Shown here piece after piece: positions 62,836 to 63,443 of a DNA stretch of 64,000 nucleotides; position 1 is the stretch's first letter, and each line of letters opens with the position of its first letter. The stretch lies in the NCBI RefSeq assembly GCF_988243305.1, contig NZ_OZ547136.1; one strand, 5' to 3'. Below the pieces are notes generated by a model that did not search any database, was not told the origin of the DNA, and was given only the letters and a program-made list of their open reading frames with translations. The position numbers and the translations under genes were made by a program.

Positions 62836-63443
62836 TTAATGACACTCCATTTTATTTATTATACTACAAGCACAACGATGCCCGCAGAGACGTAATCTCT
62901 GGCACAGACAGATGCTAATTTTTAAGTGTTAAAAATTACTGATAGCTGAAAAATAAGGGGCTTTCAGGTACGGGGATACGACTGCGTAATCTTTTATGTA
63001 GTTCATATGTTAAGTGTTTGTGTGTTTGGTTTGTATAGTTATTTTGTTTTATATATTGTATTTAGATGTGATTTAGTTTGTCAATTAATTACATATTAAA
63101 AATATGTTCTAGGCACAAATATGGATTATATACATTATGTGAATGTATTATGTGGTTGATTGAGAATGATACAGTTATATATGCAATGTGAATATAATGA
63201 TTTCATTATATGTATTGCTGTTAATAAAATAAAAGACATTATGTTCTGCTTGTTTATGCATTAATAAAAATGAAGTGCAGTAACTTACTGAATTGTCAGA
63301 GTGGGTGTAATTGCATATTTAATCTTTCCTTTGCCGCTTTTTTGCTAAGAATAAAATCATCTGTGCGATAACGACTAATTCTTTTAATGAATGTTTTTAT
63401 TCCTGAATACTGCTCCTATAACAAGACAGGGGAGCAGACAATC
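62836..63443. promoter_or_regulatory. AT-rich upstream region of the tauABCD operon
   Basis: 608-bp ORF-poor, strongly AT-rich spacer upstream of tauA; sites not mapped. Confidence 0.45.

Follow-up and report, generated by a model that had tools for sequence, protein, structure and literature searches.

The 608-bp segment between yaiS and tauA (62836-63443) is a known composite regulatory spacer, in which the tauABCD promoter is joined to the promoter island of the yaiSPXO cassette; all positions refer to the window, i.e., the whole 64,000-nucleotide stretch of DNA analysed here. We consider it very probable that the spacer combines a Cbl/CysB-dependent tau promoter with the AT-rich, H-NS-silenced 5' control region of the cassette, and that its short repeated motifs are compositional. 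Specifically, 63307-63443 would serve as the sigma-70 promoter of tauABCD, dependent on Cbl/CysB under sulfate starvation, and the AT-rich core (62990-63289) together with the leader (62836-62990) would form the 5' control region of the horizontally acquired yaiS-yaiP-yaiX-yaiO genes. The core would present a near-consensus yaiS promoter amid many weaker -10/-35 look-alikes and would correspond to the promoter island of K-12, at which RNA polymerase and H-NS bind and little transcript is made; H-NS filaments, possibly helped by competing RNA polymerase sites, might then keep the cassette off. Xenogeneic silencing is, we infer, the most likely role of the AT-rich core. Composition, the density of promoter-like sites, the conservation blocks and the linkage of the AT-rich core to the cassette come from the sequence analysed here, and H-NS, RpoD and RpoS binding come from the literature on the K-12 allele.

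Overall, the spacer is a re-identified, catalogued promoter island and H-NS site fused to a well-studied tauABCD promoter and is, as such, of low importance. It does provide a clean example of an AT-rich silencing tract that travels with a four-gene accessory cassette across genera and that is also an IS1 target and a deletion endpoint, and the neighbouring native tau promoter occurs in two very different versions within one species.

Table 1 Features of the yaiS-tauA spacer and the adjoining cassette, in window coordinates.
Feature	Position	Strand	Remarks
yaiO-yaiX-yaiP-yaiS cassette	59624..62835	-	YaiO OM barrel, hexapeptide acyltransferase, GT2 glycosyltransferase, PIG-L deacetylase
yaiS(-)/tauA(+) divergent intergenic spacer	62836..63443	.	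608 bp
yaiS leader part of spacer	62836-62990		varies between alleles
yaiS Shine-Dalgarno GGAG	62845..62848	-	9 nt ahead of GTG at 62835
Candidate proximal yaiS promoter	62858..62863	-	perfect TATAAT, poor -35; sequence scan
Inverted repeat CAGAGA-cgtaa-TCTCTG	62885..62901	.	over -35 position of candidate proximal yaiS promoter
Variable yaiS leader	62905..62990	-	73-79% identity to K-12, two 1-bp indels
AT-rich core, ortholog of K-12 promoter island 383994_309	62990..63289	.	~24% GC; mapped coordinates
Best-conserved block, distal yaiS promoter and first ~45 transcribed nt	63004..63093	-	allele alignment
Predicted distal yaiS sigma-70 promoter TTGACA-18-TACAAT	63055..63084 (63084->63055)	-	11/12 consensus matches
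TTGAGA-16-TGCAAT	63160..63187	+	window counterpart of K-12 TTGAGA-16-TACAAT; -10 A2 lost
Most variable segment	63214..63300	.	53-80% identity to K-12, 9-bp indel
Putative tau activator-binding region (Cbl/CysB)	63307..63405	+	boxes TTTTT..CTAA.AA and TAATT..TT.A
tauABCD promoter	63307-63443	+	137 bp; core boxes conserved across enterobacterial genera
tau core promoter, 5'UTR, SD (AATACTGC..ATAACAAGACAGGGGAGCAGACAATC)	63406..63443	+	allele comparison

Composition and short motifs of the spacer

The spacer is bounded by the GTG start codon of yaiS at 62835 on the minus strand and the ATG of tauA at 63444 on the plus strand, which agrees with the coordinates and the tauA-upstream location given in a first-pass annotation of this DNA. 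It is 100% identical to its counterpart in E. coli 2012C-4221 and corresponds to NC_000913.3 384617-385231 in K-12; no feature between yaiS and tauA is annotated in current K-12 or PGAP records. The extreme AT-richness described in that annotation is borne out, as the GC content over 62836-63443 (30.1%) is the minimum among all 608-bp intervals of the 64 kb (mean 52.3%, sd 5.7%). Its claim that the region is ORF-free holds for long frames: the spacer contains no ORF of at least 60 aa, and only seven of 30-40 aa. The AT-rich core (62990-63300) has an H-NS-type composition, with a GC content of 23.8% vs 52% in the window and TpA steps making up 14.7% of dinucleotides vs 4.3% window-wide, the maximum of the window; its plus strand shows a strong skew of G over C and of T over A.

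Dense reiteration of short motifs, exceeding what a simple promoter needs, had also been described, and this we could not confirm statistically. Tandem Repeats Finder detected no tandem repeats in the spacer, and a search for dispersed repeats returned two-copy families only (73-86% identity), the best of them 22 nt long at 77%. Motif and k-mer statistics were judged against dinucleotide-preserving shuffles, by which TGTATT (3 copies vs 1.0 expected, p = 0.09), ATTTAG (2 copies vs 0.48 expected, p = 0.08) and GTTTG (4 copies vs 1.33 expected, p = 0.04) are at most marginally enriched. Self-matching of k-mers over the whole 608 bp gave z = 2.0-2.4 for k = 5-6 because the segment is compositionally mixed; inside the AT-rich core, z did not exceed 1.2 for k = 5-10. 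For membership in a repeat array, be it iterons, a VNTR or reiterated operator sites, the units found here are not in excess of composition. We show that the apparently reiterated motifs are a by-product of T/A/G-only low-complexity sequence, with no repeat system behind them. The GT-rich string cited as an example of reiteration (63014-63050) is not degenerate, because it lies inside the best-conserved block of the spacer (63004-63093).

The cassette and its AT-rich control region

The four yaiSPXO genes form a horizontally acquired cassette for sugar modification. The inserted block (~3.8 kb) spans 59540 to ~63315, with its left junction after 59539; on the right side, detectable homology resumes near 63316 and near-identity from 63406. 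Of 5426 complete E. coli genomes, 4240 carry at least 80% of the spacer, and ~1175 have kept nothing of it but the last 38 bp. About 22% of complete E. coli genomes, together with E. albertii, are without cassette and AT-rich core and have a 290-305-bp frmR-tauA spacer. A 305-bp interval that contains a REP-like element separates frmR from tauA in E. coli RMDEC465 and in JJ1887, a strain of ST131, and E. albertii and Escherichia sp. E1V33 share the frmR-tauA arrangement of island-less E. coli. Citrobacter, Klebsiella and Enterobacter have spacers of 230-330 bp upstream of tauA, and no segment below 25% GC was found in the spacers of these genera or of island-less Escherichia. In E. whittamii and E. 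fergusonii, cassette and AT-rich core adjoin tauA, and in C. braakii, Y. enterocolitica and Superficieibacter the cassette occupies unrelated loci, where ~300 bp of 19-35% GC lie directly upstream of yaiS. These yaiS-upstream tracts can be aligned within Escherichia only, and outside that genus AT-richness alone is common to them. The AT-rich core belongs to the yaiSPXO cassette.

Several side observations concern this locus. The REP-like element of the island-less spacer sits exactly at the position that the cassette occupies in other strains. The same island-less frmR-tauA spacer carries a G6/C6 palindrome (ATACTATAGGGGGGTAT...ATACCCCCCTATAGTAT), presumably the FrmR operator. Within the cassette, yaiS (62164-62835) is an intact 223-aa ORF here, is called a partial pseudogene by PGAP in many strains and is annotated with 185 aa only in K-12; yaiX (60399-61109) is intact here and IS2-disrupted in K-12, and yaiP is frameshifted in 2012C-4221.

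In K-12, the spacer holds promoter island 383994_309, numbered on U00096.2. For placing it we took the shift from U00096.2 to U00096.3 to be 776 bp, and with this shift the coordinates of published RpoS SELEX peaks fall in the correct spacers. The island then maps to 62990-63289, in agreement with the independently delineated core of 23.8% GC. Panyukov & Ozoline (2013; PMC3661553) list yaiS(-)/tauA(+) 383994_309 (U00096.2) as one of 78 promoter islands of K-12, foreign according to three predictors and bound by H-NS "according to all studies" (ChIP, K-12). In the definition of the Ozoline laboratory, an island extends over at least 300 bp, and each 100-bp sliding window within it has at least 8 transcription start points predicted by PlatProm, on either strand. 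Whether H-NS or the crowding of promoters causes the silence of such islands has been disputed in the published literature. Their association with horizontally acquired genes recurs at this locus, where the cassette is absent from ~22% of E. coli genomes and occupies other loci elsewhere.

Promoter-like sites were scanned with our own, crude -35/-10 PWM, with base frequencies after classic compilations. This PWM scored 21 promoter-like sites in the 608-bp spacer, vs 0.53 per 100 bp window-wide, and placed the densest 100 bp of the 64 kb within the spacer, with 8 per 100 bp reached at the peak only. The density was 3.45 per 100 bp for the window allele vs 2.60 for that of K-12, and 1.3-1.6 in island-less spacers. 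A stricter scan found 2 sites in the spacer vs 3.7 expected in shuffles of the same composition, and the promoter-like density is therefore an effect of composition, with no extra design. For H-NS, we took the high-affinity nucleation motif to be TCGATAAATT-like; the scan with this motif returned one weak match with 2 mismatches, TCAATTAATT at 63081, which is no enrichment vs the 0.76 per 608 bp predicted from the window-wide rate, and this match falls within the conserved block 63004-63093.

Conservation was delineated from six aligned alleles (the window, CFSAN018748, ABU83972, 504211, K-12 and E. whittamii). The block at 62826-62871, containing the start, Shine-Dalgarno sequence and TATAAT of yaiS, is almost invariant across all six, and a published RpoS SELEX peak of K-12 corresponds to ~62863 in the window, at the proximal TATAAT. 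The inverted repeat just upstream of it (Table 1) is largely kept between alleles and could be an operator. The strongest conservation is found at 63004-63093, a block that is 93-100% identical among deep E. coli alleles and E. whittamii, vs 73-87% for these alleles elsewhere, and that is retained in E. fergusonii, where the rest of the spacer is 71% identical. The distal promoter within it would start transcription at ~63048. Conservation of the ~45-nt transcribed start of this promoter is stronger than silencing alone explains. Farther towards tauA, ~63094-63300, which holds promoter-like sites, is 53-97% identical to K-12 per 30-bp bin, and an invariant 17-mer (63157-63173) stands out within this otherwise moderately to poorly conserved stretch.

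In K-12, the RpoD SELEX table of Shimada et al. (2014) lists yaiS <HNS> tauA with TTGACA-18-TACAAT and TTGAGA-16-TACAAT, the latter as a constitutive promoter in the tauA direction. The former is intact in the window allele. It should be considered that all H-NS, RNA polymerase and SELEX binding data refer to the K-12 allele, from which the window allele differs at ~13% of positions: the two spacers are 86.7% identical, that of the window is 7 bp shorter, and its plus-strand -10 is altered. The window allele, 87% identical, would presumably behave like that of K-12. The first-pass annotation had also raised the possibility of several regulator sites, which is supported in substance: the ~137-bp promoter of tau, Cbl/CysB-dependent and with boxes invariant across genera, is accompanied in the remainder of the spacer by at least two predicted yaiS-directed promoters and by a published promoter island with RpoD/RpoS SELEX and H-NS sites.

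Across E. coli genomes, the spacer is anything but a conserved, unremarkable segment with one promoter; it is polymorphic in presence and in length (608 bp in the window, 615 bp in K-12, 607 bp in ABU83972 and E. whittamii), and alleles are ~87% identical. The window has a median identity to K-12 of 97.5% per 200 bp, vs 80-88% across 62801-63400, and the synonymous divergence (pS) of the two is 0.03-0.06 for the yai genes, 0.19 for tauA (first 555 bp) and 0.10 for tauB. Hypervariability as a trait unique to this spacer was considered and rejected, given that its divergence is near the pS of the adjacent tauA and that other AT-rich spacers in the window have diverged from K-12 to a similar degree; the latter similarity indicates that most of the spacer evolves near-neutrally around a few constrained blocks. 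Elsewhere in the window, 6301-6850 (the betT-yahV-pdeL spacer of K-12) forms a second long AT-rich tract (GC ~0.32), 10-15% diverged from K-12 and probably another H-NS-type region; identity to K-12 drops to ~80% in the spacer at 41101-41450, vs the 97.5% median, and to as low as 64% in the hemB-ehaB spacer. Structural variants also occur: some strains carry IS1 at ~63232-63247 with a 9-bp target duplication (GAAATAATG), and in E. coli C an IS1-associated deletion extends from 110 bp upstream of tauA through yaiS, yaiP and yaiX.

Two of the readings weighed against the composite spacer had been put forward in the first-pass annotation. Intrinsically curved DNA, in which phased A-tracts would shape the promoter or offer a landing pad to a nucleoid protein, might be suspected from the twenty short A/T tracts in the 608 bp and from a local peak at 63300-63350, the upstream edge of the tau promoter, where both wedge models that we applied (Bolshoy-Trifonov and De Santis) reach 8-14 degrees per turn. 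Averaged over the region, however, curvature ranks at percentile 37 (Bolshoy-Trifonov) and 57 (De Santis) among the 608-bp intervals of the 64 kb, and 2-3% of positions exceed the 95th percentile of the window, so that curvature as an explanation is very improbable. We give even less credence to the decayed leftover of a mobile element, whether IS, MITE, REP cluster or prophage end, upstream of tauA. The spacer does stand at the edge of a ~3.8-kb presence/absence block and has been targeted repeatedly by IS1, but it is single-copy (median of 1 place per genome), has no paralog elsewhere in the 64-kb window and no phage match, and its "plasmid" matches are records of 1.2-4.9 Mb, i.e., mislabelled chromosomal sequence. 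Its terminal inverted repeats are no more than chance in the repeat search, its supposed resemblance, as a decayed REP, to the island-less spacer falls short of significance (p about 0.25), and its central block is under purifying selection. What stands of the idea of an older insertion is that the AT-rich core is the 5' end of the inserted yaiSPXO cassette; the core itself is intact and partly conserved, without a decayed mobile element. Descent of the island-type spacer from a decayed, REP-containing ancestral spacer was likewise rejected, as local alignments were no better than shuffles (p = 0.24-0.34).

The conservation of 63004-63093 raises the question of a hidden gene, i.e., a plus-strand protein of 30 aa, a minus-strand leader peptide of 25 aa or a small RNA. 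A palindromic CATATG (63004-63009) starts both a hydrophobic plus-strand ORF of 30 aa (63007-63099) and a minus-strand uORF of 25 aa (63008); in none of the six E. coli and E. whittamii alleles is the former interrupted, and the latter retains 25 codons in 6/6 alleles despite two compensating 1-bp indels in K-12. Both lack a Shine-Dalgarno sequence, though, and in E. fergusonii the plus-strand ORF is cut to 10 aa and the uORF is replaced by an unrelated one of 19 aa even as the DNA block persists. Moreover, the middle of the uORF is frame-shifted between alleles, current K-12 and PGAP records hold no annotation here, Rfam gave no match at E<=1 over 62000-64000, and the fold of the 223-nt yaiS leader is unexceptional (z = -1.22), leaving such a gene a slim chance only. 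At the other extreme, everything upstream of the tau promoter could be a functionless neutral spacer made AT-rich by mutation bias only. Most of the spacer is indeed 13-27% divergent between alleles, i.e., above the pS of the yai genes and similar to that of tauA, the divergence of other long AT-rich spacers in the window is as large, and PGAP calls yaiS a pseudogene in many strains. Against this speak the conserved blocks that persist in three Escherichia species, the ~300 bp of AT-rich sequence found with the cassette in three other genera, where it occupies unrelated loci, and the RNA polymerase and H-NS binding documented in K-12; we regard wholly neutral sequence as highly unlikely.

Two versions of the tauABCD promoter

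The tauABCD operon is transcribed from a sigma-70 promoter, for which Cbl and CysB, two activators of the LysR type, are required under sulfate starvation. Work by van der Ploeg in 1997 reportedly found a Cbl footprint at -112 to -68 of the tau promoter. In the window, AATACT (63406-63411) is the better candidate for the -10, and the transcription start would lie near 63419. Counting from there, we take that footprint to correspond to ~63307-63351, where the run that is invariant within E. coli begins, and the conserved tau boxes presumably coincide with it. The segment 63307-63443 is nearly invariant within E. coli, adjoins tauA and combines a sigma-70 -10 and a weak -35 with conserved upstream boxes, as a tau promoter should. 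Four boxes, AATACTGC, ATAACAA, TAATT..TT.A and TTTTT..CTAA.AA, do not vary among 12 genomes from 5 genera and recur in most of the 80 tauA loci examined. Cbl/CysB regulation of tauABCD is listed in PMC11495319.

The last 38 bp (63406-63443) are identical at 38/38 positions in island-less E. coli RMDEC465 and at 36-37/38 in other island-less Escherichia, and are largely kept across genera. Upstream of them, the promoter exists in two versions, with a sharp switch at AATACTGC (63406). The 90 nt upstream of AATACTGC in island-less E. coli are 92-94% identical to those of island-less Escherichia species, 79-83% to those of Citrobacter and 68-73% to those of Klebsiella and Enterobacter. The cassette-linked 90 nt (63316-63405), by comparison, are 76-84% identical among E. 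coli, E. whittamii and E. fergusonii and show 48-57% in-register identity to all island-less versions. Compared with each of the 80 tauA loci examined, those of Cedecea and Buttiauxella among them, the island-type promoter reaches ~50% identity, and a donor was accordingly not found in this set.

One conceivable account, which we put forward tentatively and think rather unlikely as it stands, is an old two-state polymorphism upstream of tauA in Escherichia, frmR-REP-tauA versus the cassette-linked form, with an origin by arrival or by rewriting. In the former, frmR-REP-tauA, the tau activator region would be the one that E. coli, E. albertii, Citrobacter, Klebsiella and Enterobacter share at 68-94% identity. 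The latter, common to E. coli, E. whittamii and E. fergusonii, would consist of the yaiSPXO cassette, the AT-rich island and a tau activator region (-25 to -115) with 48-57% identity to each enterobacterial version sampled. The cassette might have brought along a foreign tau promoter from a donor outside the sample; alternatively, the AT-rich insertion might have led to rapid rewriting of the native promoter, in which the Cbl/CysB boxes alone were kept. In synonymous diversity, tauA (pS of 0.11-0.24 among E. coli alleles) exceeds the yai genes 3-4-fold, with a decay into tauB; long coexistence of the two states would explain this excess. The coupling of taurine uptake to H-NS might therefore not be the same in the two states. 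The dimorphism of the tau promoter (~50% identity) is unexplained and is the sole feature of the spacer that warrants follow-up; if the two versions differ in regulation, they would provide a natural test of how an H-NS-bound, acquired neighbour reshapes a housekeeping promoter.

Comparison with known systems

The spacer resembles the known Cbl/CysB-regulated tauABCD promoter in the ~137 bp abutting tauA, with its -10-like AATACT/TATAAC and a poor -35, and that promoter accounts for the tauA-proximal 22% of the spacer only. The tauABCD promoter studied in K-12 is the cassette-linked version, ~50% identical to the version of island-less Escherichia, Citrobacter, Klebsiella and Enterobacter. Xenogeneic silencing, in which H-NS shuts down AT-rich DNA of horizontal origin, was reportedly described in 2006 by Navarre, Lucchini and Oshima. 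The spacer matches that picture in its strongly AT- and TpA-rich tract, which forms the 5' end of an accessory cassette, in its many spurious sigma-70 sites and in the H-NS reported on the K-12 allele; it departs from it in that the tract abuts a housekeeping, activator-dependent promoter, that of tauA. Such silencing of acquired AT-rich DNA is discussed in PMC11661796 and PMC7054387.

Among the promoter islands of K-12 (Shavkunov et al. 2009; Panyukov & Ozoline 2013, PMC3661553), the AT-rich core is the orthologous locus of one, with ~300 bp of ~24% GC and top density of promoter-like sites. Like island 383994_309 of K-12, which is H-NS-bound in ChIP there, it lies beside the horizontally acquired cassette; the window allele differs from K-12 in its sequence (86.7% identity), in a length reduced by 7 bp and in the loss of A2 from one listed plus-strand -10. 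The promoter island of appY (Bykov et al. 2020, PMC7054387) likewise shows an excess of promoter-like sites upstream of a foreign gene, and its low output and H-NS binding place it in the same class as the yaiS/tauA island (PMC7054387). The appY island has been dissected by mutagenesis; the yaiS/tauA island is set between divergent operons, one foreign and one native.
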